This document shows positions 1 to 12,079 of a DNA stretch of 12,079 nucleotides, in pieces. The position numbers were made by a program, and so were the translations under genes. The stretch lies in the UHGV virus genome UHGV-0141735, one strand, 5' to 3'. This DNA is from a virus. The notes beneath the pieces are model-generated. The model searched no databases, had not been told where the DNA came from, and worked only from the letters and a program-made list of their open reading frames with translations. Numbering within the stretch: position 1 is the first letter of the stretch; the number at the start of each line of letters is the position of its first letter.

Positions 1-49
1 TTTGGTCGTTTTAGGCGTTTTTAATGCTCTGCCGCCAAAGTGTCGCCAC

Positions 50-1285
50 TTACGTGTGCAGTGTATGTTCGATTTTTTGATGTTTGAATAACCGATCAAC
101 CAATAATTCAAGTTTGTGAAAATCTGTAAGAGGATATAGCTTCACGATGTCTTCCTCAAAATTCGCTATACCTGATAATTTTTCTTTTTTTCGTAAGTAA
201 TCGATGGCAATTCTTTGTTCATTCGATATCTCAAACTGATTTTGATAATCTAAGGTTTTAAGTACTTGCCAAGACATAGGGGCTGTAAATTCGAAGTAAG
301 AAGCTAGTTTTGGACAAAAATCATATTGAATAGATTGCTTATAGGTTGCTTTAGGTGGTAATACAACATTAACAGAATATTTACTGCTCCTAGAATTCGG
401 CATTTTTGTAGAGTAATATGCTATCCCCGCTATTGGTGATTTAACCCGACGACCGATCCACTGCATTAATAAATTTGGGATTATATATTCAGGTGTGAAT
501 GATGAATTTTCTACGCGTTTTAAATAATTGCAAGCGATTAGTAATGGCCAGAATATCAAGTATGATGCTTTTGTTCTGTTTTCATCATATATTTTATTTT
601 CATCAACAGTTTTTTTAATTGGAAGTGAAAGGTGAGGAGAAGCAAAATTTAAAATTGTTGAATTTACATCGTTTGTAACGAAGGATGATATATATAATTT
701 ATCAAAATCTGGCTTTCCCATCTCTTGCCAACATACGTACAAGGATGTACCGAGATATAAGCAGGGTTGGCCTGCGACTGAATATCTTTGAGCATTCACT
801 AAATGTCTTTTTGAAAACGGAATATGAAATATTTGGTTGTGCTCAATCAAAGGGGTTTCTGATTTTCTGACCCGATAAAGTGGCTTTTCCTTATTGCAAA
901 AATCTTTTAGCAAGATACTAATTCGATTTAGTTGGGCTATTGTTGCCTCCTTTGACATAATGTCATCGAAAATGTCATATGCTTTTTTAATATCTCCAGA
1001 CAAAAACTCCTCTAGAGTTTTTTGTATGCACTTATGAATATTTGCAACTCGTCCTTTTAGAACTCTAAGTTCCCTACCGCATCCATTCATGTCTGCTTTT
1101 ATTGATTCATCAATTAAAGTCATATAAATTTTACATCGATTAGAAAAATCACTGGCTATATCGCCTTTAATGTTGAATGGTGGATTTAATTCTTCATGGC
1201 TCAATAGTCGCTCAAGAAAGTGATCAATCCAGAGTGCATTTTTCTTTTCTGATTCTAATTGAGTACTGGATTTTTTTTCGTCCAT
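50..1285 (-). CDS. Hypothetical AT-rich cargo protein (411 aa) with a central RES-like (Arg-Glu-Ser, NAD+-targeting toxin-type) region; function unproven
   Basis: Intact 411-codon ORF. Its ATG (1283-1285 on the minus strand) lies 4 nt downstream of the int stop, same orientation. Sample 60-nt lines count about 27-30% GC by hand, against about 60% in a gpA line. Motifs LYRVRK, then QRYSVAGQPCLYLGTSLYVCWQE, then AYYSTK...SVNVVLPP resemble the RES-domain core pattern (R ... G.P.LY.s.s...A..E ... S). Pattern-level only. Confidence 0.6.
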   Translation of the reverse strand: MDEKKSSTQLESEKKNALWIDHFLERLLSHEELNPPFNIKGDIASDFSNRCKIYMTLIDESIKADMNGCGRELRVLKGRVANIHKCIQKTLEEFLSGDIKKAYDIFDDIMSKEATIAQLNRISILLKDFCNKEKPLYRVRKSETPLIEHNQIFHIPFSKRHLVNAQRYSVAGQPCLYLGTSLYVCWQEMGKPDFDKLYISSFVTNDVNSTILNFASPHLSLPIKKTVDENKIYDENRTKASYLIFWPLLIACNYLKRVENSSFTPEYIIPNLLMQWIGRRVKSPIAGIAYYSTKMPNSRSSKYSVNVVLPPKATYKQSIQYDFCPKLASYFEFTAPMSWQVLKTLDYQNQFEISNEQRIAIDYLRKKEKLSGIANFEEDIVKLYPLTDFHKLELLVDRLFKHQKIEHTLHT

Positions 1286-1289
1286 GTTT

Positions 1290-2306
1290 TCACTCTATAT
1301 AGTTTAAAGGATTTTTAGTTACCGCATCCTCCAGATGATCTGGAGAAAAGTGCGCATAAATCATGGTCATTTTTATATCGGCATGGCCTAAAATTTCTTT
1401 AAGCACAAGTATGTTTCCTCCGTTCATCATAAAATGGCTGGCGAATGTATGACGTAATACATGGGTGCATTGACCCTCAGGAAGCTCAATATCGGCCCGC
1501 TTTACTGCACGCTCAAAGGCTTTTCTGCATGGTGAGAATAACTTCCCTCGATTTTTAGGAAGTTCGTTGTACAGATCCTGAGATATTGGCACGGTACGGT
1601 TTTTCTTGCCCTTCGTCTTGGTATAAGTGATGCGGTATTTGGATAATTGATGGCCCTGCAGATTTTCTGCTTCACTCCACCGTGCGCCAGTAGCTAGGCA
1701 TATTTTTGCAATCATTAGTAAGCTAGGGCTTTGAGATTCAGCACATGCCGCCAACAGGCGCTTGATTTCGTCCGTGGAAAGAAAAGCCAGCTCACCTTCG
1801 GCAATTTTGAAGGTCGGAAGTCCTGCCAGCGGGTTTGGTGCTGACCAGTGTCCTAGTTTTTTTAATGTACCGAACACCGATGATAGATTGCGCTGTTCAA
1901 GGTTTACCGTGCGGGGCTTAACGGGCGACATAAGCGTGCCATCTTCATTTCGTATTTCACCTTTTAACCGTGCTTCGCGGTATTTCGTAAAGTCTCCGGC
2001 TGTCAGTTCTGAGGCGATGGGGTCGCCTAGGCCATTACAGATAATTCTAAGTTTCGCCATGAGGCGCTTGGGGTCTGCGAGTGTCTGACCATACAGGGAA
2101 TACCAAAGCTCAATTAATTCTGATAGGCGTCGCCGATCATCCTTTTCACCCAACCACGGTTTTTTATTCACTTCTTCCATTGTGAAGCTTTCAAACGCAA
2201 TGGCTTCGCCTTTCGTGGCAAATTGCTTACGCACGCGCTTGCCATTGCGTCCATTGGGATAGCACTCGCACAACCATTTTCCGTTCGGCTGTTTTCTGAT
2301 GGTCAT
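1290..2306 (-). CDS. int: Tyrosine recombinase / phage integrase, P2/186 Int family
   Basis: 338 aa. C-terminal catalytic signature HVLRHTFASHFMMNGGNILVLKEILGHADIKMTMIYAHF (HxxR ... Y nucleophile), an upstream TGARWSEA box, and N-terminal GRNGKRVRKQF...AFE typical of P2-type Int. Its start is 1 nt from the repressor stop, the C-int operon layout. Confidence 0.95.
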   Translation of the reverse strand: MTIRKQPNGKWLCECYPNGRNGKRVRKQFATKGEAIAFESFTMEEVNKKPWLGEKDDRRRLSELIELWYSLYGQTLADPKRLMAKLRIICNGLGDPIASELTAGDFTKYREARLKGEIRNEDGTLMSPVKPRTVNLEQRNLSSVFGTLKKLGHWSAPNPLAGLPTFKIAEGELAFLSTDEIKRLLAACAESQSPSLLMIAKICLATGARWSEAENLQGHQLSKYRITYTKTKGKKNRTVPISQDLYNELPKNRGKLFSPCRKAFERAVKRADIELPEGQCTHVLRHTFASHFMMNGGNILVLKEILGHADIKMTMIYAHFSPDHLEDAVTKNPLNYIE

Positions 2307-2307
2307 A

Positions 2308-2940
2308 TCAAAGGCTCTTAATGATTTTCAGTGCGCGGCCTACTACCTCAATGTCATCCAGACCGCACTCAAACGATGAATCATCCTGATGCACTACTAA
2401 TTTGTTTCCCGGGAGTCGTGTCAATTTAACAATGCTTTTTATCCCGTCGATGTCCACTAACCACATACCATTTACTGGTGGTGTTTGGTTGCGATCTATT
2501 AAATAAGAATCACCAGAAGTAGTCACCAGCAGCAGGTTGCTTGAATCTGAGGGGAGTATGCTGCTATCAATGATTGCTTTTCCCGCATCGATCAATAAAC
2601 CACCGTTGAGAGTCGCCTTGTCAATTTCAGGAGATACTAGTTCAGAAAGAGGTACAACCTTGCTGGAGTTCACGGAATTGATATTTTTTTTAGGTTCAAT
2701 GTTTGGACCTGGCTCCCCCTGTCCGGTGGTTAGCCACAGTAAAGAAACTCCTGTTTCCAAGGCGCACTGAATCACCCACTCTGCAGGAAAACTATCTCTT
2801 AAGTATCTGTTTGCCATGGTGCTTTTTGATGCGCCTAAGTGATCGCAAAGTTGCTGTCTGGACTTGAAATCATAGGCTGCCATTAGTCTATGGATAGCCT
2901 CTCTTCCCCCTGTATTCTCTCCAACCTTTACCTGTATCAT
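2308..2940 (-). CDS. cI: Phage CI-type immunity repressor (N-terminal HTH, C-terminal oligomerisation/regulatory domain)
   Basis: 210 aa. Transcribed leftward from the early control region directly into int. N-terminus (RLMAAYDFKSRQQLCDHLGASKSTMANRYLR) looks like a phage CI-repressor HTH. The position matches 186 cI / P2 C. Confidence 0.8.
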   Translation of the reverse strand: MIQVKVGENTGGREAIHRLMAAYDFKSRQQLCDHLGASKSTMANRYLRDSFPAEWVIQCALETGVSLLWLTTGQGEPGPNIEPKKNINSVNSSKVVPLSELVSPEIDKATLNGGLLIDAGKAIIDSSILPSDSSNLLLVTTSGDSYLIDRNQTPPVNGMWLVDIDGIKSIVKLTRLPGNKLVVHQDDSSFECGLDDIEVVGRALKIIKSL

Positions 2941-2952
2941 TTTTTAATCCTG

Positions 2953-2981
2953 TTGACGTATCAAATATTGGATCGTAGTAT
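2953..2981 (+). promoter_or_regulatory. Candidate rightward early (lytic) promoter: -35 TTGACG (2953-2958), 17-bp spacer, -10 TAGTAT (2976-2981)
   Basis: Sigma70-like hexamers with 17-bp spacing, about 80 bp upstream of the first rightward gene (3060) and just upstream of the repressor start. Position is equivalent to pR/Pe of 186/P2. Confidence 0.45.
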
Positions 2982-3000
2982 CTCGATGTATCAAATATTG
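2958..3000. promoter_or_regulatory. Two identical 13-bp direct repeats GTATCAAATATTG (2958-2970 and 2988-3000) flanking the candidate -10; putative repressor operators
   Basis: Exact 13-bp direct repeat, 30 bp centre to centre, bracketing the -10 hexamer. P2-type C repressors are known to bind direct repeats flanking the early promoter -10. Confidence 0.45.
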
Positions 3001-3059
3001 AATCAAGTAAAACGAGATAAAACGACGTAAACCAAACCTTAATCGGGAGATACTGCACT

Positions 3060-3302
3060 ATGAGCACTGATATTTCAATTCGTGTACCAAAAGAGATGGC
3101 TACGCCTGCAGAGTTCGCGGAATGGGAAGGTATCTCCCGCGGCTCTGTGTATCAAAAAATTCACCATGGTCAGCTTGCTAAATACATGGTCAAGAAAGAA
3201 AAAAACAAAGGCCGCGTAAGCCTGCGTTATTTAATGTACAAAACCGATCAGGTCCGTGAATCCCTCGGTCATTCCAACTTCCGCGTCATTGTTGGTAAGT
3301 AA
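3060..3302 (+). CDS. Small DNA-binding regulator, Apl/Cox-like (excisionase / early-switch protein) by position
   Basis: 80 aa, first gene of the rightward operon opposite the repressor, as apl in 186 and cox in P2. Basic C-terminus, possible HTH (GISRGSVYQKIHHGQ). Positional inference. Confidence 0.55.
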   Translation: MSTDISIRVPKEMATPAEFAEWEGISRGSVYQKIHHGQLAKYMVKKEKNKGRVSLRYLMYKTDQVRESLGHSNFRVIVGK

Positions 3303-3334
3303 GTTCAATTATGAGAACTTTCTAAGGGGGTAGC

Positions 3335-3844
3335 ATGTTTGATTATAAGATTTCCAAACACCCGCATTTTGATGAAGCCTGTAGAGCTTTTGCACTTCGT
3401 CACAATATGGCGAAGCTGGCAGAACGTGCAGGAATGAATGTCCAGACTCTGCGAAACAAACTCAACCCAGATCAACCGCATCAGCTCAATGCGCCAGATA
3501 TCTGGCTACTTACCGATCTGACGGAAGATTCAACGCTGGTAGACGGTTTTCTGGCACAGATTCACTGCCTGCCATGTGTACCGATTAATGAGGTGGCAAA
3601 AGAGAAACTGCCACATTACGTCATGAGTGCAACCGCAGAGATCGGGCGTGTTGCTGCAGGTGCGGTATCTGGCGATGTAAAAACCAGTGCAGGTCGTCGT
3701 GATGCTATCAGCAGCATTAACTCTGTTACACGACTGATGGCGTTAGCTGCTGTTTCATTGCAGGCCCGTTTACAGGTTAATCCTGCGATGGCAAGTGCAG
3801 TTGATACTGTAACTGGCCTCGGTGCTTCATTCGGTTTGCTGTGA
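3335..3844 (+). CDS. cII: CII-like transcriptional activator (186 CII family)
   Basis: 169 aa. Strong RBS (AAGGGGG) 6 nt upstream. HTH-like segment NMAKLAERAGMNVQTLRNKLN. Position (second gene of early operon) and length match 186 CII as recalled from memory. Confidence 0.65.
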   Translation: MFDYKISKHPHFDEACRAFALRHNMAKLAERAGMNVQTLRNKLNPDQPHQLNAPDIWLLTDLTEDSTLVDGFLAQIHCLPCVPINEVAKEKLPHYVMSATAEIGRVAAGAVSGDVKTSAGRRDAISSINSVTRLMALAAVSLQARLQVNPAMASAVDTVTGLGASFGLL

Positions 3845-3851
3845 GGTGCTT

Positions 3852-4052
3852 ATGCTGACGAAAGAACCATCATTTGCATCGCTGCTGGTAAAACAAAGTC
3901 CGGCAATGCACTACGGTCACGGCTGGATCATGGGTGAGGATGGTAAACGCTGGCATCCGTGCCGTTCACAAGATGAATTGCTGGCAGAACTATCTACGAA
4001 AAAACGGGGGAACAAATGGCTATTGAAGGCGCTGCGGCGACTGTTCCATTAA
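3852..4052 (+). CDS. Small early protein of unknown function (positional equivalent of 186 fil / P2 orf78)
   Basis: ATG at 3852 preceded by GAGG 5 nt upstream, 8 nt after the cII stop. The longer ORF-track version starts at a GTG inside cII and is less likely. Confidence 0.45.
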   Translation: MLTKEPSFASLLVKQSPAMHYGHGWIMGEDGKRWHPCRSQDELLAELSTKKRGNKWLLKALRRLFH

Positions 4053-4357
4053 GCCCCGGTGAACGCCTGAATGGACTTAATCACATAGCGGAATTAAGGG
4101 CGAAAGTTTTTGGCCTGAATATTGAGTCAGAGCTTGAGCGGTTTATTAAAGATATGCGTGATCCACGGGATATCAATAACGAACAAAATAAACGAGCACT
4201 GGCAGCCATATTCTTTATGGCAAAAATTCCGGCTGAACGTCATAGCATCAGCATCAATGAGCTGACCACTGACGAAAAGCGGGAGTTGATTAAAGCAATG
4301 AATCATTTTCGTGCAGTGGTGAGCTTATTTCCCAGACGGCTAACCATGCCGAATTAA
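4016..4357 (+). CDS. Hypothetical early protein (113 aa)
   Basis: ORF with GGGGGA RBS 4 nt upstream of ATG 4016. Overlaps the previous small ORF by 37 nt. No recognisable motifs. Confidence 0.45.
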   Translation: MAIEGAAATVPLSPGERLNGLNHIAELRAKVFGLNIESELERFIKDMRDPRDINNEQNKRALAAIFFMAKIPAERHSISINELTTDEKRELIKAMNHFRAVVSLFPRRLTMPN

Positions 4358-4424
4358 CCAACTAATGAAATTAATGGCGTAAACCCGCCGGGCATCCCTT
4401 TATCTAAATTCAGGAGAATTGATT

Positions 4425-4658
4425 ATGCGTAATATTGAAATCCTCACGACTAAAACCGGACCGGATGATGCTGGGCTTAATATTTTACTGACAGAGGCTC
4501 GTCTGGAAGAACGCCGGGCAAGGGCTGAAGCAATGGCAGCTCGCCTTGATAGCCTGGCGTGTCATATCTCATCCCGTCAGCTAAACCACGTGGAAGCGGC
4601 AGAACTGCTGCGTGTGACTGCTGAAGCAATCCAGAACGAAGCGCAGGAGATCCACTAA
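4425..4658 (+). CDS. Hypothetical early protein (77 aa, Arg/Ala/Glu-rich, likely coiled coil)
   Basis: AGGAG RBS 8 nt upstream of ATG 4425. Its stop overlaps the start of the next gene (TAATG). Confidence 0.5.
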   Translation: MRNIEILTTKTGPDDAGLNILLTEARLEERRARAEAMAARLDSLACHISSRQLNHVEAAELLRVTAEAIQNEAQEIH

Positions 4659-4885
4659 TGGCTGATGCAATGGATCTCGTACAGCAGCGCGTTGAAGAAG
4701 AACGCCAGCGCCATATCCGTGCTGCCCGTGCCAAAACACCGGGCGTGTCTCGCGTGCTTTGCATTGAGTGTGAAGCGCCAATTCCGCCAGCACGCCGCCG
4801 TGCCATTCCGGGTGTGCAGCTTTGCATTACCTGCCAGGAAATTGCAGAGCTGAAAGGCAAACATTACAACGGAGGTGCTGTATGA
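4658..4885 (+). CDS. TraR/DksA-family C4 zinc-finger protein
   Basis: 75 aa with CIECEAPIPPARRRAIPGVQLCITCQ (CxxC-x17-CxxC), as in TraR/DksA-like small proteins common in P2-like early operons. Start and stop are overlap-coupled with neighbours. Confidence 0.75.
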   Translation: MADAMDLVQQRVEEERQRHIRAARAKTPGVSRVLCIECEAPIPPARRRAIPGVQLCITCQEIAELKGKHYNGGAV

Positions 4886-5736
4886 GCACCATCCTGAAAT
4901 GGGCGGGAAATAAAACCGCCATTATGTCCGAACTGAAAAAACACCTTCCTGCTGGCCCGCGACTGGTTGAACCTTTCGCGGGTTCCTGTGCAGTGATGAT
5001 GGAGACGGATTACCCCAGCTATCTGGTTGCGGATATTAATCCTGATTTAATCAACCTCTATAAAAAGGTTGCCGCTGATTGTGAATCGTTTATATCTCGC
5101 GCCAGAGTTTTATTTGAGAACGCAAACAGGGAGATGGATTATTACAACATAAGGCAGGAGTTTAATTACTCAACTGAAATTACTGATTTCATGAAAGCGG
5201 TATATTTCCTGTATCTCAATCGTCACGGTTACCGTGGTTTATGCCGCTATAACAAGAGCGGGCATTTCAACATTCCCTACGGTAATTATAAAAATCCGTA
5301 TTTCCCTGAAAAAGAAATTCGCGCATTTGCAGAAAAAGCCCAGCGGGCAACGTTTATCTGCGCCAGCTTTGATGAAACGCTGGCGATGTTGAAAGCGGGG
5401 GATGTGGTGTATTGCGATCCGCCGTATGACGGTACGTTTTCCGGCTATCACACTGATGGTTTCACTGAAGATGACCAGTATCACCTGGCATCCGTTCTTG
5501 AACATCGAGCATCTGAAGGACATCCGGTCATTGTTTCTAACAGTGACACGTCTTTGACCCGGTCTCTTTATCGTAATTTCACTCACCACTACATCAGGGC
5601 GAAACGCAGCATCGGCGTTGCAGCGGGGGAGGGAAAATTTGCAACAGAGATGATTGCCACTAAATCTGCTAATTGGTTTAGTGCCGATTTTAGTAGGGGA
5701 CGTGACTCTACTGTTATTTTCGGGGTGCAAGTGTGA
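4882..5736 (+). CDS. dam: DNA adenine methyltransferase (Dam family, GATC N6-adenine MTase)
   Basis: N-terminal LKWAGNK...LVEPFAGS (AdoMet-binding motif), [19 protein letters not shown], and catalytic VYCDPPY; near-collinear with E. coli Dam. True start is ATG 4882 (GGAGGTG RBS, ATGA overlap with upstream stop), not the longer 4822 ORF. Confidence 0.95.
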
Positions 5737-6563
5737 AAGAAATGCACCACGGAATTCATCATTTCCATGGGACGCCTGTCTGGGGAAGTGCTGGCGACGT
5801 TCATCGTATTGCGGTGAGCGGAGCTGGTGCTTTCGTCTCCTATGTACGACCAGATCAGATTGCGGCGTCCATTCAGCACGCTCAGGTCGTCGGCATTGAT
5901 AACGGCGCATTTTCTGCATGGGTGCGTGGGCTAAAAATTAACTGGAGTGATTTTTATAAATGGCTCCTGAACTATTACCACCATCCTAAGGTCGCTTTTT
6001 TTGTCATTCCTGATGTTGTGGACGGAGGTGAACGTGACAATGATGCCCTGATAAACGAAGTTCCGAAAATGTTCTACGGGAAGGCAACTCCCGTCTGGCA
6101 TCTGCACGAGTCAATCGATCGGCTTATCGAGCTATGTCGTGAATGGCCTCGTGTCTGCTTTGGATCGTCTGGTGAATATGCGGCTATTAGAACTGCGCAC
6201 TGGCATCGTCGTATGCAGGACGCTTTTGAAGCAATTTATTGCCGACACAATTTCAAAACAGCTGTTCATGGTTTGCGCATGCTTGACGGTCGTGTGTTGG
6301 GAAATTACCCACTGGCGACTGCCGACAGTACAAATCTTGCCTGCAATGTCCCCAAATTTAATAGCAAATATCCTGAGCTTACGCGGGCTATTCAGGAGGC
6401 TGAGTATTCGCGCAATCTGACGGAAAAGGAGCTGAAAGCTGTCATTCTGAAAAACCGTTGCGCAATTTTAAAAGGTGCAATTGAAGCTGTTCGCCCACCT
6501 TCAGTTTCTGACTGGCTGTCGAATGGTTTGCAGCCTTCACAGCTCGAACTGGAGATTGCGTAA
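5733..6563 (+). CDS. Conserved hypothetical protein (276 aa); possible TGT/DpdA-like DNA-modification enzyme (speculative)
   Basis: Start (GTG 5733 or ATG 5742) overlaps the dam stop and its stop overlaps the gpA start (TAATG), so it is translationally coupled inside the early operon. [12 protein letters not shown] resembles the DSGGFQ catalytic-Asp motif of tRNA-guanine transglycosylase-fold proteins, but the Cys/His zinc site is not evident. Confidence 0.6.
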
Positions 6564-8935
6564 TGAACTACAGCTATTCCTGGAATGCTGAGAAAAAAGC
6601 AATCAATCCTTACGTAGAGACAGAAGAGCAATCTTCAGTTTCTGCGCTTTCAAACCTGATCACTCTGTACGCTGTCGATAACGAGCAGGAACAACTGCGT
6701 CGCGAGGCACTGAGTGATCAGGTCTGGGAGCGTTATTTCTTTAATGAATCCCGTGATCCTGTCCAACGCGAAATGGAGCAGGATAAGCTCATTAGTCGGG
6801 CAAAGCTGGCGCATGAGCAGCAGCGTTTTAATCCGGATATGGTCATTCTGGCGGACGTCAACGCCCAGCCTTCCCATATCAGCAAGCCGCTGATGCAACG
6901 TATTGAATACTTCAGCAGCCTGGGCAGGCCAAAGGCTTATTCCCGCTATTTGCGTGAGACGATTAAGCCATGTCTGGAACGGCTGGAGCATGTACGCGAC
7001 AGTCAGCTATCCACTTCTTTTCGCTTTATTGCGAGCCATGAAGGGCTGGACGGCCTGCTGATCCTGCCTGAAATGAGTCAGGATCAGGTGAAACGCCTGT
7101 CCACCCTGGTAGCTGCGCATATGAGCATGTGCCTTGATGCCGCTTGTGGTGATTTGTACGCCACCGATGATGTTAAGCCAGAAGAAATCCGCAAGACATG
7201 GGAAAAGGTGGCAGCGGAAACCCTGCGTCTGGATGTCATCCCGCCTGCGTTTGAGCAACTCCGCCGGAAAAGAAACCGCCGTAAACCCGTGCCCTATGAA
7301 CTCATTCCGGGTTCGCTGGCGCGTATGTTGTGCGCTGACTGGTGGTACCGGAAATTATGGAAGATGCGTTGCGAATGGCGGGAAGAGCAGTTGCGTGCTG
7401 TCTGCCTTGTCAGCAAAAAAGCATCTCCCTATGTCAGCTATGAAGCCGTGATGCATAAACGTGAGCAGCGCCGTAAGTCGCTGGAGTTTTTCCGTTCTCA
7501 TGAACTGGTGAACGAAGACGGCGACACGCTGGACATGGAGGATGTGGTAAACGCCAGCAGCAGCAACCCTGCGCATCGCCGCAATGAGATGATGGCCTGT
7601 GTTAAAGGTCTGGAGCTTATCGCGGAAATGCGTGGCGACTGCGCCGTTTTCTACACCATCACCTGTCCGTCACGTTTCCATTCCACGCTAAATAACGGCA
7701 GGCCCAACCCGACCTGGACAAATGCGACGGTAAGACAAAGCAGTGATTATCTGGTCGGCATGTTTGCTGCATTTCGTAAGGCGATGCACAAAGCCGGATT
7801 GCGCTGGTATGGCGTGCGGGTGGCTGAGCCGCATCATGACGGCACAGTTCACTGGCACCTGTTGTGTTTTATGCGCAAAAAAGACCGCCGCGCCATTACT
7901 GCTTTGTTGCGTAAGTTTGCCATTCGTGAAGACTGCGAGGAGCTGGGTAATAACACGGGGCCACGCTTTAAGTCTGAGCTGATAAACCCGCGCAAAGGAA
8001 CGCCGACAAGCTACATCGCGAAATATATCAGCAAGAACATTGACGGGCGTGGTCTGGCTGGCGAGATCAGCAAGGAAACGGGTAAATCTCTGCGTGATAA
8101 CGCTGAATACGTGAATGCCTGGGCGTCTTTGCATCGTGTTCAGCAATTCCGCTTCTTTGGTATTCCGGGACGTCAGGCTTACCGTGAACTTCGCTTGCTG
8201 GCTGGTCAGGCGGCAAGGCAACAGGGTGACAAAAAAGCAGGTGCGCCGGTACTGGATAACCCGCGTCTTGATGCCATTCTGGCTGCTGCTGATGCTGGTT
8301 GTTTTGCCACCTACATCATGAAGCAGGGCGGCGTACTGGTTCCCCGTAAATATCACCTCATCAGAACCGCTTATGAAATCAACGAAGAGCCGACCGCCTA
8401 TGGCGATCACGGTATTCGTATTTATGGCATCTGGTCACCCATTGCAGAGGGCAAGATCTGCACTCATGCAGTGAAGTGGAAAATGGTTCGTAAAGCCGTT
8501 GACGTTCAGGAGGCGGCAGCCGACCAGGGCGCTTGCGCCCCTTGGACTCGTGGCAATAACTGTCCCTTTGCTGAAAATTTGAACCAACAGGAGAAAGATA
8601 AATCAGCTGATGGGGACCCCAGAACGGACATTACCAGCATGGATGACAAGGAGTTGCACGATTACCTGCACAGTATGAGCAAAAAAGAGCGCCGGGAACT
8701 GGCAGCAAGGTTACGCCTGGTGAAACCGAAACGGCGTAAAGACTACAAACAGCGAATTACAGACCATCAGCGACTGCAGCTCGTGTATGAGCTGAAGTCC
8801 AGAGGATTTGATGGCAGCGAGAAAGAGGTCGATTTACTCCTTCGCGGAGGCAGTATTCCGTCAGGAGCAGGCCTGCGTATCTTCTATCGGAACCAGCGTT
8901 TGCAGGAAGATGATCAGTGGCGGAACCTGTATTAA
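6563..8935 (+). CDS. A: Rolling-circle replication initiator endonuclease (P2 gpA family, HUH relaxase-type)
   Basis: 790 aa. HUH motif VHWHLLCF and paired catalytic tyrosines YIAKYISK (YxxKY) in the expected order and spacing. Size and position match P2/186 gene A. Confidence 0.9.
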
Positions 8936-9029
8936 TTACGCGGGTTAACAATTCGTGCTCTTAATAATACCAGGCATATCAGGCTGATGAACGTAAAAAA
9001 ACGTTTTACATCAGTAAGATTATTATATA

Positions 9030-9045
9030 CTGTAAATATAAACAG
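9030..9045. promoter_or_regulatory. LexA (SOS) box CTGTAAATATAAACAG
   Basis: Perfect CTGT-N8-ACAG palindrome, AT-rich centre, flanks TA...TG (tactgtaaatataaacagtg), about 44 bp upstream of ATG 9089. Confidence 0.55.
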
Positions 9046-9088
9046 TGGTTATACATACAGTATTGCGTGTGGTGTCATAGGAGGAAAG

Positions 9089-9277
9089 ATGCAGGACTAT
9101 TTTTTGGAGTCTTTGAAGCTCCAGCGCATTGATTTTTTTCTTAAGCTTGTAGCGGCTAGTGAGTGTAGTGATGAAGAGAAGGGGCTGGCTCTGCAGTGGG
9201 TTTCTGAATTGACTGATGAACTCATGGCAAAAATCAGAACCCACGAATACAACCGCTCAATGGATGTCATCAGCTGA
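9089..9277 (+). CDS. Small hypothetical protein (62 aa), first gene of the SOS-controlled module
   Basis: ATG 9089 with AGGAGG 4-5 nt upstream, downstream of the LexA box. The longer 8987 start would place the LexA box inside the coding region, so the short form is preferred. Confidence 0.4.
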   Translation: MQDYFLESLKLQRIDFFLKLVAASECSDEEKGLALQWVSELTDELMAKIRTHEYNRSMDVIS

Positions 9278-9287
9278 GGTGACTTTT

Positions 9288-9521
9288 ATGCGCATTGAAA
9301 TAATGATCGATAAAGAGCAGAAGATTAGCCAGTCTACCCTAGACGCCCTTGAATCCGAGCTTTACCGCAATCTGCGCCCCCTGTATCCCAAAACGGTAAT
9401 TCGCATTCGCAAAGGTAGCTCTAACGGTGTGGAACTAACCGGACTGCAACTGGACGAAGAAAGAAAACAAGTGATGAAAATTATGCAGAAGGTGTGGGAA
9501 GACGACAGCTGGCTGCATTAA
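9288..9521 (+). CDS. DinI-family protein (186 Tum-like SOS-inducible module)
   Basis: 77 aa, MRIEIMIDKEQ...LDALESELYRNL...KIMQKVWEDDSWLH, collinear with E. coli DinI (MRIEVTIAK...ILQETWESADDWF). GAGGTG RBS 6 nt upstream. Confidence 0.85.
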   Translation: MRIEIMIDKEQKISQSTLDALESELYRNLRPLYPKTVIRIRKGSSNGVELTGLQLDEERKQVMKIMQKVWEDDSWLH

Positions 9522-9656
9522 GAAACGTTGCTGGCGTCTGAACTTGCTTCTGGCGTCAGCAAGGTTGAACAACGAGCCCTTGCGAGGCGTTAGCTCTGTA
9601 GTGCATGTCTATGCCGCATGAGATCGCATGATCGTTTGAGGATCGTTTTTGCTAAG

Positions 9657-9680
9657 GCCCGCCAGAACTGGCGGGCTTTT
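9657..9680 (+). terminator. Rho-independent terminator closing the early/SOS operon
   Basis: GCCCGCCAG / CTGGCGGGC inverted repeat (9-nt arms) followed by TTTT. Confidence 0.55.
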
Positions 9681-9725
9681 GCGTAGATCATGCAGGTGCA
9701 TGAAAACCACTACATAAAGCGGGCA

Positions 9726-9745
9726 GGCGTGGCGGGGATACGAGC
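9726..9745. other. cos-like sequence (P2/186-type cohesive-end site) GGCGTGGCGGGGATACGAGC
   Basis: Matches the first 13 nt of the P2/186 cohesive end as recalled from memory (GGCG[A/T]GGCGGGGA), followed by GCGCGCT as remembered for the P2 left end. Lies between the early region and the portal side, where cos is expected. Confidence 0.45.
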
Positions 9746-9854
9746 GCGCGCTCATGGTTGAATTAATGAAATTATGGTGTTAAATAGGCTAGCTTTTTAA
9801 GTCGTGAATATTCAATTTTTCAACTCATTTTTTTCATAGGGAGGAGTAATTGAC

Positions 9855-10553
9855 ATGGTTATGTTAGTGGATGACTGTCCACGATGTGGATCACAAAAAA
9901 TAGCGTTTGATGTTAATGGGCTGAATTGCACTAGGGTTTACAATGCATTGGGCGGGGGTAAAACATACGAGTACGAGGTCTATTGTGTTTGCCGAGAGTG
10001 TCATAAAACGACAATGTTTCTTTGCAGACCTTTAACGAAAAATAAAAATTTAGATGGCTATAATTGGGAAAGTGGAATATTCGGCTTAAAGGAAGTTGCA
10101 GAGGTTGTTAGGCCTATATCACCGGCAGACTTAGCAGTAGAGGAGCCACCAGAGTTCTTACCTGAGCATATCAATAGTGCATATGAGGAAGGGGCGAAAT
10201 GTTTGGCTATAGGTTGTTATAATGCAGCAGCAACCATGTTTAGGCTTTGCCTTGATTATGCCACAAAAGGACTTCTTCCTGATGGGGAGCAAGGGCCTGC
10301 GCAAAAAATAAGGAGAAGCCTAGGGTTAAGAATGGAGTGGTTATTTGATAATCATCTACTGCCTGAAGCTTTAAGGGAACTAGCTGAATGCGTTAAAGAT
10401 GACGGAAATGATGGAGCGCATGAAGGTATTTTGGATAAAGCTGCTGCTGAGGATCTTGAAGATTTTACCTATCTTTTTTTAGAACGGCTTTACACTGAAC
10501 CTCAACGCCTTATCGAAGCCAAGACAAGGCGTGAACAAAGAAGAAACAAATAA
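9855..10553 (+). CDS. AT-rich cargo protein (232 aa): N-terminal four-Cys zinc ribbon plus acidic all-alpha C-terminal domain; unknown function, defence candidate
   Basis: Strong RBS AGGGAGGAG 8 nt upstream of ATG 9855 and an AT-rich upstream region. CPRCG...CVCRECH zinc ribbon. C-terminal LRELAECVKDDGNDGAHEG motif. Sits between the cos-like site and the portal stop (8-bp gap), convergent with the portal fragment. Confidence 0.75.
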   Translation: MVMLVDDCPRCGSQKIAFDVNGLNCTRVYNALGGGKTYEYEVYCVCRECHKTTMFLCRPLTKNKNLDGYNWESGIFGLKEVAEVVRPISPADLAVEEPPEFLPEHINSAYEEGAKCLAIGCYNAAATMFRLCLDYATKGLLPDGEQGPAQKIRRSLGLRMEWLFDNHLLPEALRELAECVKDDGNDGAHEGILDKAAAEDLEDFTYLFLERLYTEPQRLIEAKTRREQRRNK

Positions 10554-10561
10554 GTTCGGAA

Positions 10562-11200
10562 TTATTCTTCTGAAAGAATATAGGGCGTAAATTTAATCAC
10601 TTCTTCGCCCAGCCAGTCGTTCAGCTCTTGTAGCCTTTTTTGCAAGGGCGTTAATTCATTACGTACAAATACGCGACTGGCCTTCTCCACATCCCCAAAC
10701 CCTCCAACATTATTAGGCATAATCCCCATCATTTGCGGCGGCACGCGGTGCGCAGCCATCATGTCGTCGCGGCTGACATTTTTGATATTCAAAAACTCAT
10801 CCTTCGCCGCGACTTCTGACAATGGGATGATCTGAAGCCCGTCTTTTTTGCCGTTAGGCGAGTACATAAACAGGTTGCGGAAGTTGCCTGGACCTTTGGC
10901 GCTTTTCATCGCATTGCGGAGGTTGTTCACATCCTCCTGGTTTTGCGCGGCATCGGTCATGTACATGATAAAGCCCGCATGACTGCCGTTAATGTAATAC
11001 TTGCGACGGAACAGCGTGGCGGACTCGTTGAGCAGGGCTGACGGAATGGCAGAAAGATAACCGGGCAGGCCGTAGATCTCCTGATTAATATCCGGTTCCA
11101 TCAGATGAAAAATGCTGCCTTTCGTGAACTGATACGGCTGGGTTGTCATACCGTATTGCACAAACCAGTAGGTAACGGTTTTACGACCAGTATTGAACTT
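10562..11200 (-). pseudogene. Q: 5'-truncated portal gene (P2 gpQ family), C-terminal roughly 210 codons retained
   Basis: From about TGRKTVTYWFVQ to the C-terminus (DMMAAHRVPPQMMGIMPNNVGGFGDVEKASRVFVRNELTPLQKRLQELNDWLGEEV) the translation reads as a portal protein. The ORF's N-terminal 45 residues are low-complexity and overlap the ogr start, so the upstream boundary (about 11200) is approximate. Confidence 0.65.
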
Positions 11201-11301
11201 GAAGTGAAAATTGGTGATCTTGAAATGGAATAAATGGTTCTCAATATTGATATTTTGTGTATCATTGCAATGATTCTGATAGCAAAGGTAGGGATCTGGA
11301 T

Positions 11302-11520
11302 ATGATGAATTGTCCAAAGTGTGGTCATGCGGCGCACACAAGGAGCAGTTTTCAAGTAACAGAAAGCACCAAAGAGCGTTACTGCCAGTGCCAAAATATT
11401 AACTGCGGGAGCACTTTTGTTACCCATGAAACAGTGGTCCGGTTTATTGTGACACCTGCAGTGATTGCCACAGCCCCTCCACATCCATTGCCAGGTGGTC
11501 AGGGCCATATGAATTTTTAA
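11302..11520 (+). CDS. ogr: Ogr/Delta-family zinc-finger late-gene transcriptional activator
   Basis: MMNCPKCGHAAHTRSS...KERYCQCQNINCGSTFVTHETVVRFIV...PHPLPGGQ is collinear with P2 Ogr (CxxC-x22-CxC-x4-C). Start at ATG 11302 preferred over the longer 11257 ORF. Confidence 0.9.
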   Translation: MMNCPKCGHAAHTRSSFQVTESTKERYCQCQNINCGSTFVTHETVVRFIVTPAVIATAPPHPLPGGQGHMNF

Positions 11521-11527
11521 GAAAGAG

Positions 11528-11549
11528 AACCTGCTACGGCAGGTTTTTA
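11528..11549 (+). terminator. Hairpin plus T-tract after ogr (AACCTGC-TACG-GCAGGTT-TTTTA)
   Basis: 7-bp stem, 4-nt loop, followed by TTTTTA. The stop of the convergent minus-strand gene lies in the T-tract. Confidence 0.45.
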
Positions 11550-12029
11550 TTCATCTGGGATCTCACCCGTTTCAAGAAAATGTATAAAGCCAGGCTCATC
11601 TATGATGATAGTGCCTTTCATCCTGGCTGCCGATACTTTTGATGGGCCTGCATTGTAACCGCAACAGAGCATCTGAAGGTTTTGGGTTACAGATGTTCTT
11701 ACCGTTAATCCTTGTTCATTCGCCTTATCAACCAACCTTTCTTTATCTGCTTTCTTAAATCCGGTGAAACACACATCGAATGTATTTTTTTTCGGACCTG
11801 ACTGCTTAGTGAGATGTGAGTAGTTTTCGGGGAGGAATGACGCGCATTCCTGAATGGCTTGTTCTTGTGAATCGTATTGTTTAAGAATGCGGTCTTTTCG
11901 GAAGGTTTTTATTCGATCGGTGTTCTTACAAATGCCCTGTATGTGATTTTCGCTATAACTGATGCTCTGTATTGAGTGAACACCGATACGACCATTTGCA
12001 TTGATGTAAACAAAGTGAAGTTCTTCCAT
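11547..12029 (-). CDS. Small BRCT-domain protein (160 aa) with a beta-rich N-terminal domain; unknown function
   Basis: Good SD (AAGAGG) upstream of ATG. C-terminal VCFTGFKKADKERLVDKANEQGLTVRTSVTQNLQMLCCGYNAGPSKVSAARMKGTIIIDEPGFIHFLETGE fits the BRCT pattern (hydrophobic-TG start, central G-G/S-K, C-terminal hydrophobic acidic end). AT-rich relative to the prophage core. Confidence 0.65.
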   Translation of the reverse strand: MEELHFVYINANGRIGVHSIQSISYSENHIQGICKNTDRIKTFRKDRILKQYDSQEQAIQECASFLPENYSHLTKQSGPKKNTFDVCFTGFKKADKERLVDKANEQGLTVRTSVTQNLQMLCCGYNAGPSKVSAARMKGTIIIDEPGFIHFLETGEIPDE

Positions 12030-12079
12030 GTCAAACCTCTTTGCATGATTTCAAGATGGCGACAGGCAAGATGGACGCA

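Follow-up and report, generated by a model that had tools for sequence, protein, structure and literature searches.

A 21-kb deletion in a P2-like prophage joins a portal gene remnant to the 3′ end of gene D and leaves ogr with its native promoter

Gene content and setting of the prophage remnant

The window, by which we mean the whole 12,079-nt stretch of DNA analysed (UHGV-0141735), is, judged by its sequence, a ~12-kb remnant of a P2-family (Peduoviridae, Cartapus-like) prophage integrated beside ssrA. Pfam scans, which covered 13 of its ORFs, returned the hallmarks of the family above curated cut-offs: the portal, the gene A replication nickase, the Ogr zinc finger, the 186-type CI and CII proteins and a tyrosine integrase. 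The remaining early ORFs were matched to ordinary P2-like early genes annotated in relatives and in an identical contig. Gene order is collinear with phage Cartapus (NC_070909) apart from one deleted interval, and cos lies at the matching annotated site. The window retains int, CI, cox/apl, cII, dam, gene A with ori, cos, three accessory genes and ogr with its own promoter. The complete set of late (virion and lysis) genes is not present, Cartapus positions 1482-22440 being missing. The early region is only 88-95% identical to that of Cartapus.

At the left end, an accessory gene encoding 411 AA (50-1285, minus strand) lies beside the integrase gene; its product has no match in Pfam or PADLOC. 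A homologue is annotated as 'putative RES protein' in Cartapus, and the gene has a wide distribution (208 index blocks); elsewhere it is bordered on its outer side by a P4-like satellite (integrase, SIR2, DUF87, Psu, Delta), by ypjA or by csiD. It is followed by the integrase (1290-2306) and 186-type CI (2308-2940) genes, both on the minus strand, and then, on the plus strand, by cox/apl, cII, fil, DUF5347, DUF2732, a TraR/DksA-like gene and dam. An extra plus-strand ORF of 276 AA (5733-6563) without a family match precedes replication gene A (6563-8935, plus strand), after which comes dinI on the same strand. About 1 kb between dam and gene A (5658-6637, including the extra ORF) is missing in Cartapus and in strain H2, and the 5′ end of gene A differs in keeping with this insert. 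Strain KL53 has a homologue of the extra ORF in a block of 95% DNA identity, where an 822-nt ORF is annotated.

The retained cos site (9694-9752, plus strand) matches the annotated cos of Cartapus and includes the equivalent of the 19-nt cohesive end, GGCGTGGCGGGGATACGAG, at 9726-9744. Between cos and the portal, i.e. in the defence hotspot between genes A and Q, lies an accessory gene with a Pfam DUF4145 domain (9855-10553, plus strand), which is convergent with the portal remnant. Its product gives a weak match to PADLOC PD-T7-4, and its DNA is nearly identical to the Cartapus stretch carrying gp01 (99.8% over 1481 nt). The portal remnant (10562-11174, minus strand) is followed by the 3′ end of gene D (11173-11233, plus strand), the native D-ogr spacer (11234-11301, plus strand) and ogr (11302-11520, plus strand), the 72-AA product of which is the late-gene activator. 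A hairpin terminator (11528-11545) was found by the terminator scan between the convergent ogr and BRCT genes, at the same place where a terminator is annotated in P2.

The last gene, between ogr and attR, encodes a 160-AA BRCT-domain protein (11547-12029, minus strand). This protein is variously annotated in records as DNA ligase, exonuclease or hypothetical, and it gives a weak match to PADLOC PDC-S48. In relatives, ssrA and smpB come after the BRCT gene. The same holds for a 111.6-kb ENA SPAdes contig (coverage 54 in its name) that is 100% identical to positions 562-12079 of the window. There the BRCT gene is followed by ssrA, smpB, ratA, rnfH, bamE, recN, nadK and grpE; host genes thus lie beyond the right end, and the late genes have not simply been left outside the window on this side.

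The portal-D junction and the promoter of ogr

A preliminary description of this DNA, made without database searches, had proposed that loss of the late region fused a truncated portal gene to the region upstream of ogr, and comparison with the parental sequences confirmed this. In BLAST searches of phage records, the segment 10400-11700 splits cleanly, with matches to the portal side ending at 11174 and those to the D/ogr side beginning at 11173. Cartapus matches 10400-11174 (DUF4145 gene and portal) at 99.9%, and other phage records match from 11173 on, over the end of D, ogr and the BRCT gene. For a base-by-base comparison we used Cartapus as the parent on the portal side and E. coli 07-4299 as the parent on the D-ogr side. 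The window equals Cartapus portal DNA through …CCAGTAGGTA (11174) and the D-ogr DNA of 07-4299 from TAACGGTTTT (11173). The junction therefore lies at 11173-11174, where the dinucleotide TA is common to both parents, and corresponds to Cartapus 1480-81 joined to 22439-40. This is inside the interval 11150-11301 to which the break had been assigned, and 26 nt left of the position (about 11200) at which portal similarity was thought to end.

The portal remnant consists of the C-terminal 203 codons (residues 142-344 of 344) and the stop codon, it matches the Pfam Phage_portal family, and all 203 residues are identical to those of the Cartapus portal. The N-terminal 141 codons and the portal's own promoter are deleted, so that a full-length portal gene with another start is not what lies here. 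The partner had been taken to be the ogr upstream region. Native spacer and ogr are indeed present, but the join itself falls inside gene D (tail/late-control), of which the last 61 nt remain: 19 codons, identical in 19 of 19 residues to Cartapus gpD 348-366, plus stop. This D fragment has 100% DNA identity to intact prophages.

Reading through the join on the minus strand gives a chimeric ORF of 259 AA with a TTG start (10562-11341), which runs antisense through the start of ogr, the spacer and the D fragment before entering the portal frame. Residues 57-259 equal Cartapus portal residues 142-344, and the first 55-56 residues are antisense read-through; the non-portal N-terminal part, first put at approximately 45 residues, is thus about 56 residues long. 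This ORF is a fusion artefact and not a gene. Its product was not found for any recorded gene; gene callers instead take a 195-AA ORF from an internal ATG at 11149, which is present on four public contigs.

Extent of the loss was read from the Cartapus coordinates. The two flanks match Cartapus 1-1481 at 99.8% (1481 nt) and 22439-23345 at 99.9% (907 nt), and with 99.8-100% identity to intact phages over these lengths the match is not due to chance. Between them Cartapus 1482-22440 is lost, i.e. 20,959 bp (~20.96 kb) allowing for the 2-nt overlap. The lost DNA comprises the portal N-terminus, the terminase, capsid, lysis, baseplate, fibre, sheath/tube and tape-measure genes, U, and D except for its last 19 codons, together with all four late promoters. 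The junction is thus the scar of a 21-kb deletion that removed nearly all virion and lysis genes from a P2-like prophage, with ogr and its own promoter left intact.

The parents share only TA at the junction, no filler DNA is present, and no repeats, IS remnants or IS fragments were found at the join. An 8-nt sequence, CATACCGT, occurs near both parental sites and was rejected as junction homology, the two copies being out of register. The abrupt switch between two collinear parental segments, with a short overlap, no filler and no mobile-element remnant, has the features of illegitimate recombination. A 2-nt overlap is within the expectation for a random join (calculated P about 0.16), so that the junction alone is uninformative as to mechanism; taken alone, it is ordinary prophage decay.

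The same junction is present in at least two independent public assemblies, the ENA SPAdes contig described above and a Logan contig, both 100% identical to the window over 562-12079, junction included. In 5,426 complete E. coli genomes, the two halves of a 601-nt probe centred on the junction each match at 100% and never both together. Exact-pattern searches of viral, genome and metagenome collections for this junction gave no match.

As to ogr, its start at 11302 on the strand opposite to the portal, given in the preliminary description, agrees with a Pfam Ogr_Delta match (E 9e-21) and with the coordinates of the RefSeq annotation in relatives. The gene is intact, with all four zinc-finger cysteines (C4, C7, C30 and C35) in place. 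A sigma-70 promoter is predicted at 11247-11274, with a -35 element TTGATA (11247-11252), 16 nt, and an extended -10 element TGcAATGAT ending at 11274; transcription is predicted to start at about 11281. The P2 record annotates the -35 and -10 elements of the ogr promoter at the same position inside the D-ogr spacer, and the -10 element of P2 aligns with that of the window. The junction lies 129 bp upstream of the ogr ATG and 73 bp upstream of the predicted -35 element, and positions 11173-11474 are 100% identical to intact prophages. It had been pointed out that the exact breakpoint decides whether this promoter is native or composite. From 11173 on the DNA is that of intact prophages without a difference, and the predicted -35 element lies 73 bp inside this segment; the predicted promoter is therefore native and not composite. 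By eye, no LexA box was found upstream of ogr; ogrK has been listed among possible SOS genes.

In P2, ogr has a sigma-70-type promoter of its own just downstream of D, as annotated in the P2 record. The P2 gene is reportedly also co-transcribed late with FETUD, whereas in the remnant only the own-promoter route can remain. We infer that ogr keeps its native, immunity-controlled early promoter and has lost late co-transcription from the F-operon promoter. The terminator scan found no plus-strand terminator between the DUF4145 stop codon and ogr; transcripts of the DUF4145 gene could therefore run on through the antisense portal remnant and provide ogr with a new input.

A comparable arrangement is found in the cryptic prophage PR-X of E. 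coli K-12 (ogrK and the D-gene fragment yegZ), which likewise has a D 3′ fragment, the D-ogr spacer and an intact ogr beside the attachment site. PR-X spans 629 bp and has lost all else, whereas the present remnant retains the early region, cos and accessory genes, and its D fragment is joined to a portal fragment. PR-X is the minimal form of the same D-ogr end, the remnant sharing its D fragment, native spacer and intact ogr. An orphan ogr of the PR-X type is reportedly functional. The orphan late activator left in the window could, to judge from its intact sequence, remain able to act on co-resident P2-like prophages or P4-like satellites.

Recurrent endpoints in the portal gene

The portal-side endpoint, Cartapus 1481 (S1; top strand ending …CCAGTAGGTA), is common to the nucleotide in at least eight different deletions with different right-hand partners and accessory genes. 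In each, the cos-proximal side is kept and the overlap is TA. In Cartapus coordinates, S1 is joined to 7048 in gene X (locus L012), about 7800 in the lysis region (L144), a tail-fibre segment (an NCBI assembly, L221), and 22439 in D in the window itself. IMG/VR loci add partners at about 15182 (invertase), 20001 (tape measure), 22097 (D) and 23253 (BRCT gene), and the join to 20001 is seen again in a Logan contig beside different accessory genes. The portal remnant and cos are the only parts common to the junction-bearing loci, which differ in accessory genes and in portal alleles (89-100% identical to Cartapus). S1 recurs in E. coli and in the more divergent of these alleles (89-92% identical).

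Locus L012 (Logan SRR23828410), the fourth contig with the 195-AA ORF, belongs to a different prophage, with an integrase 81% identical to that of the window and late genes 99.9% identical to Cartapus. Its deletion (1481 to 7048) has the same portal endpoint and the same TA overlap as the window. It lacks only the portal N-terminus through gene X, i.e. head genes, and keeps the lysis and tail genes, which is a tailocin-like architecture.

The IMG/VR scan for S1 used the 20 nt that precede the break, with any base but the native T after them. Five loci were found, one of them a SNP variant and four of them junctions. With the break moved one nucleotide to the left, none of 47 matches was a junction, all being intact alleles; moved one nucleotide to the right, the search gave only one junction, compatible with TA/TAT. 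Among the 120 intact loci listed, one other junction fell within the next 90 nt. Reciprocal use of S1, with the other side kept, had no matches. Across S1, 1184 of 1200 E. coli records are intact. The searches for S1, and for the second site described below, were seeded from the window's sequence, and the total of intact sites is a lower bound, given by the matches listed. No junctions were seen in the GGTG allele of S1, in a sample too small to carry weight. On the portal side the endpoint is not random, and the essentially random endpoints of an illegitimate deletion are not what was found at S1. A literature search on truncated portals of P2-like phages returned no description of a recurrent polar endpoint.

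A second recurrent endpoint in the portal gene, S2, lies at Cartapus 1570 (…CTCCAGGTA), 89 nt from S1, and also ends in GGTA. One lineage joins it to 21473, 16615 and 19851; in a Salmonella lineage, which is represented on 22 NCBI contigs and the allele of which reads CCAGATA up to the break, the partner is 8514. S2 thus recurs in E. coli and Salmonella backgrounds; no S2 junctions were found in IMG/VR. On the top strand of the 1035-nt portal gene GGTA occurs only twice, exactly at S1 and S2. A third left endpoint, at Cartapus 15583, reads …AACGGTA.

Right-hand sites need only TA: GATA was seen four times, besides GGTA, AATA, CATA, GTTA and ATTA. The right endpoints 20001 and 23251-23253 are each reused with different left partners (L016, L208, L221, L018 and strain 300709), and three endpoints cluster in D at 22097-22133. 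There may thus be hot sites on both sides of the deletions. When mapped onto Cartapus, all junctions were collinear deletions without inversions, the tail-fibre partner of L221 standing outside this orientation count.

A protein search with the portal remnant showed that truncated or fused portals break at many positions. Independent late-region deletions are also present in P2-like prophages at ssrA in strains H2, KL53 and 300709, with unrelated endpoints and microhomology of 0-6 nt. In H2 the portal (1268) is joined to the tape measure gene (20485) with the overlap GTCATG, and in KL53 gpO (3972) to D (22133) with the overlap GA. Strain 300709 has two such joins, from gpO (4611) to 17551 with no overlap and from the tape measure gene (19157) to the BRCT gene (23251) with the overlap GA. 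Locus L230 (ENA ERZ27229728) shows the opposite gene selection from the window: a truncated cII is joined directly to baseplate gene W, and gene A, cos and the portal are lost.

A 2026 survey (PMC13586616) described incomplete P2-like prophages in which core genes are pseudogenised and defence genes are nearly intact; it placed the main defence hotspot between gpA and the portal gene gpQ and saw no obvious pattern in core-gene loss. The window is like these prophages in that it retains the gpA-gpQ hotspot and two others; different from them, two nucleotide-exact, strand-specific endpoints recur in the present analysis.

Origin of the deletion and of its fixed endpoint

Taken as a whole, the data are very probably best explained by an illegitimate join between portal codon 141/142 and gene D, with a native ogr promoter and a non-random portal endpoint. 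The preliminary description had assumed a single large deletion. The flanks are indeed collinear on Cartapus and ~20.96 kb apart, and one event is the simplest reading; as the portal endpoint recurs as a hot spot, however, several deletions may have followed one another from this one nucleotide. In such a course, an earlier and smaller portal-anchored deletion, e.g. one joining the portal to X as in L012, would later have been extended to D, the fragile site on the retained side persisting. This would suit the finding of one left endpoint with partners at increasing distance, the five different junctions in one lineage with an identical portal remnant, and the location of the recognition motif GGTA on the retained side. 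Yet no bases from an earlier partner are left at the junction, and with its different integrase and early region L012 is not the direct ancestor. We regard nested deletions as a rather unlikely course of events, to be kept in mind beside the one-step loss.

As to how the fixed end might arise, a recurrent, sequence-determined DNA 3′ end (…GGTA-3′) could be formed by a nick or by arrest. Such an end might lie on the nascent leading strand of a rightward chromosomal fork, where it would re-prime or be joined at a downstream TA, deleting the DNA ahead. From the MG1655 map we take it that the chromosomal fork at the ssrA locus runs left to right in the orientation of the window, which matches the polarity of S1 and S2. 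The pattern of one fixed endpoint, variable partners, short homology and polarity is that of fork-arrest or nick hot spots. A deletion hot spot is reportedly present at terB, and others are said to lie at the origin nick sites of M13/pC194. Deletion hot spots at arrested or nicked replication share with the present junctions one nucleotide-fixed endpoint, a variable second endpoint, very short homology and the deletion of DNA ahead of the fixed end. They differ in that neither a Ter/Tus site nor an origin nick site, nor any other barrier, was identified at GGTA, so the likeness is in pattern only.

Several known sources of breaks were considered at these sites, and none gave a convincing fit. 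As to Chi/RecBCD, Chi is present on neither strand of Cartapus; folding z-scores at S1 are unremarkable and give no sign of a stable hairpin, and no ori-like site was found. No accessory gene is common to the hotspots of the junction-bearing loci, which share only cos and the portal remnant. By eye, no site fits Dcm/Vsr or EcoRII action at the neighbouring CCAGG, EcoKI, EcoP1 or HgaI sites, the distance of DnaG priming from CTG, IS ends or a Ter-like sequence, and Cas9/Cas12 PAM geometry fits S1 only. A 10-nt sequence of the ssrA-derived att core, AACCCGCGTC (attP core at about 23418-23463), recurs at Cartapus 1491-1500, 10 nt right of S1. This copy sits in a small GC hairpin with a run of T after it and could be a secondary Int half-site or a chance match.

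A site-specific enzyme could also make the S1 and S2 joins directly, without the repair of a break. The candidates are a serine recombinase whose crossover spans 2 nt and an HUH enzyme cutting 3′ of a tetranucleotide; the enzyme would join GGTA to a partner relaxed to any two bases before TA. The constant TA overlap, the GGTA left sites with the relaxed set of right sites listed above, the reuse of 20001 and 23251-53 with different left partners, and the Gin-type invertase encoded in the deleted region would all agree with such an activity. Against it, the native invertase sites read TTCTCGCATACC-TT-GGTTTGGGAGAA, with the centre TT, and half-sites around TA mismatch; the Gin/Hin/Cin quasi-site that we considered at S1 has an AAACC-like half-site 6 nt from TA and was rejected. 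None of about 12 junctions was seen to be an inversion product. Nor is the nick site of gene A related: neither the P2 nick context, GCGCCTCG/GAGTCC, nor its homologue in the window at about 8537 resembles S1, and a secondary gene A nick was likewise set aside. Finally, no candidate enzyme is common to the loci, the accessory genes of which all differ. Direct joining by such an enzyme is on balance an unlikely origin of S1 and S2.

It is very improbable that two P2-like prophages in tandem at ssrA were involved, with a deletion reaching from the portal of one to D of the next. Tandem prophages do exist there (strain ET734), and the early region of the window (88-95%) is less Cartapus-like than either junction flank (99.8-99.9%). 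One and the same phage, however, matches both flanks equally well, mosaicism of the early region is normal in the P2-like family, and nothing calls for a second prophage. In E. coli ET734 (L003), the two tandem prophages have frameshifts in several genes and an HNH endonuclease gene at their boundary.

There is equally little to favour the remnant being an evolved, helper-dependent 'mini-P2' satellite with int/cox, gene A with ori, cos and ogr, even though its gene content, its retained cos and its size of ~12.4 kb (calculated from Cartapus coordinates), about that of P4, would suit such an element. Equivalents of sid, psu, epsilon or alpha are lacking, the junction is found only in 100%-identical copies, and relatives lose ogr or retain tail genes without pattern. 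Pfam scans of 13 of the ORFs returned no Psu, alpha-primase or other P4-type families, and the window does not qualify as a P4-like satellite. A ~12.4-kb remnant with cos, int, cox, gene A/ori and ogr has, in principle, the requirements for packaging by a helper; no evidence of its mobilisation was found. Least probable of all is an assembly or scaffolding artefact joining two unrelated contig ends: the junction is missing from the 5,426 complete genomes and, as an exact pattern, from three contig collections, but a 2-nt overlap cannot mislead an assembler, the identical junction stands in the ENA SPAdes contig and in a separate Logan assembly, and analogous junctions occur in NCBI, IMG and Logan data.

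Returning to the illegitimate portal-D join with its fixed endpoint, we propose tentatively, as a possibility that is open to considerable doubt, that a sequence-specific activity makes a DNA end or crossover after GGTA on one strand of P2-like prophages, most visibly at both GGTA of the portal gene, and repeatedly drives one-directional loss of virion genes, sparing cos, the early region and the defence hotspots. If true, prophages would be disarmed or domesticated by a dedicated route, which would yield tailocins where the loss is confined to head genes, as in L012. Prophage inactivation is usually seen as random deletion followed by selection; if the breakpoint is determined by sequence, a specific molecular process would shape which prophage genes go and how fast.
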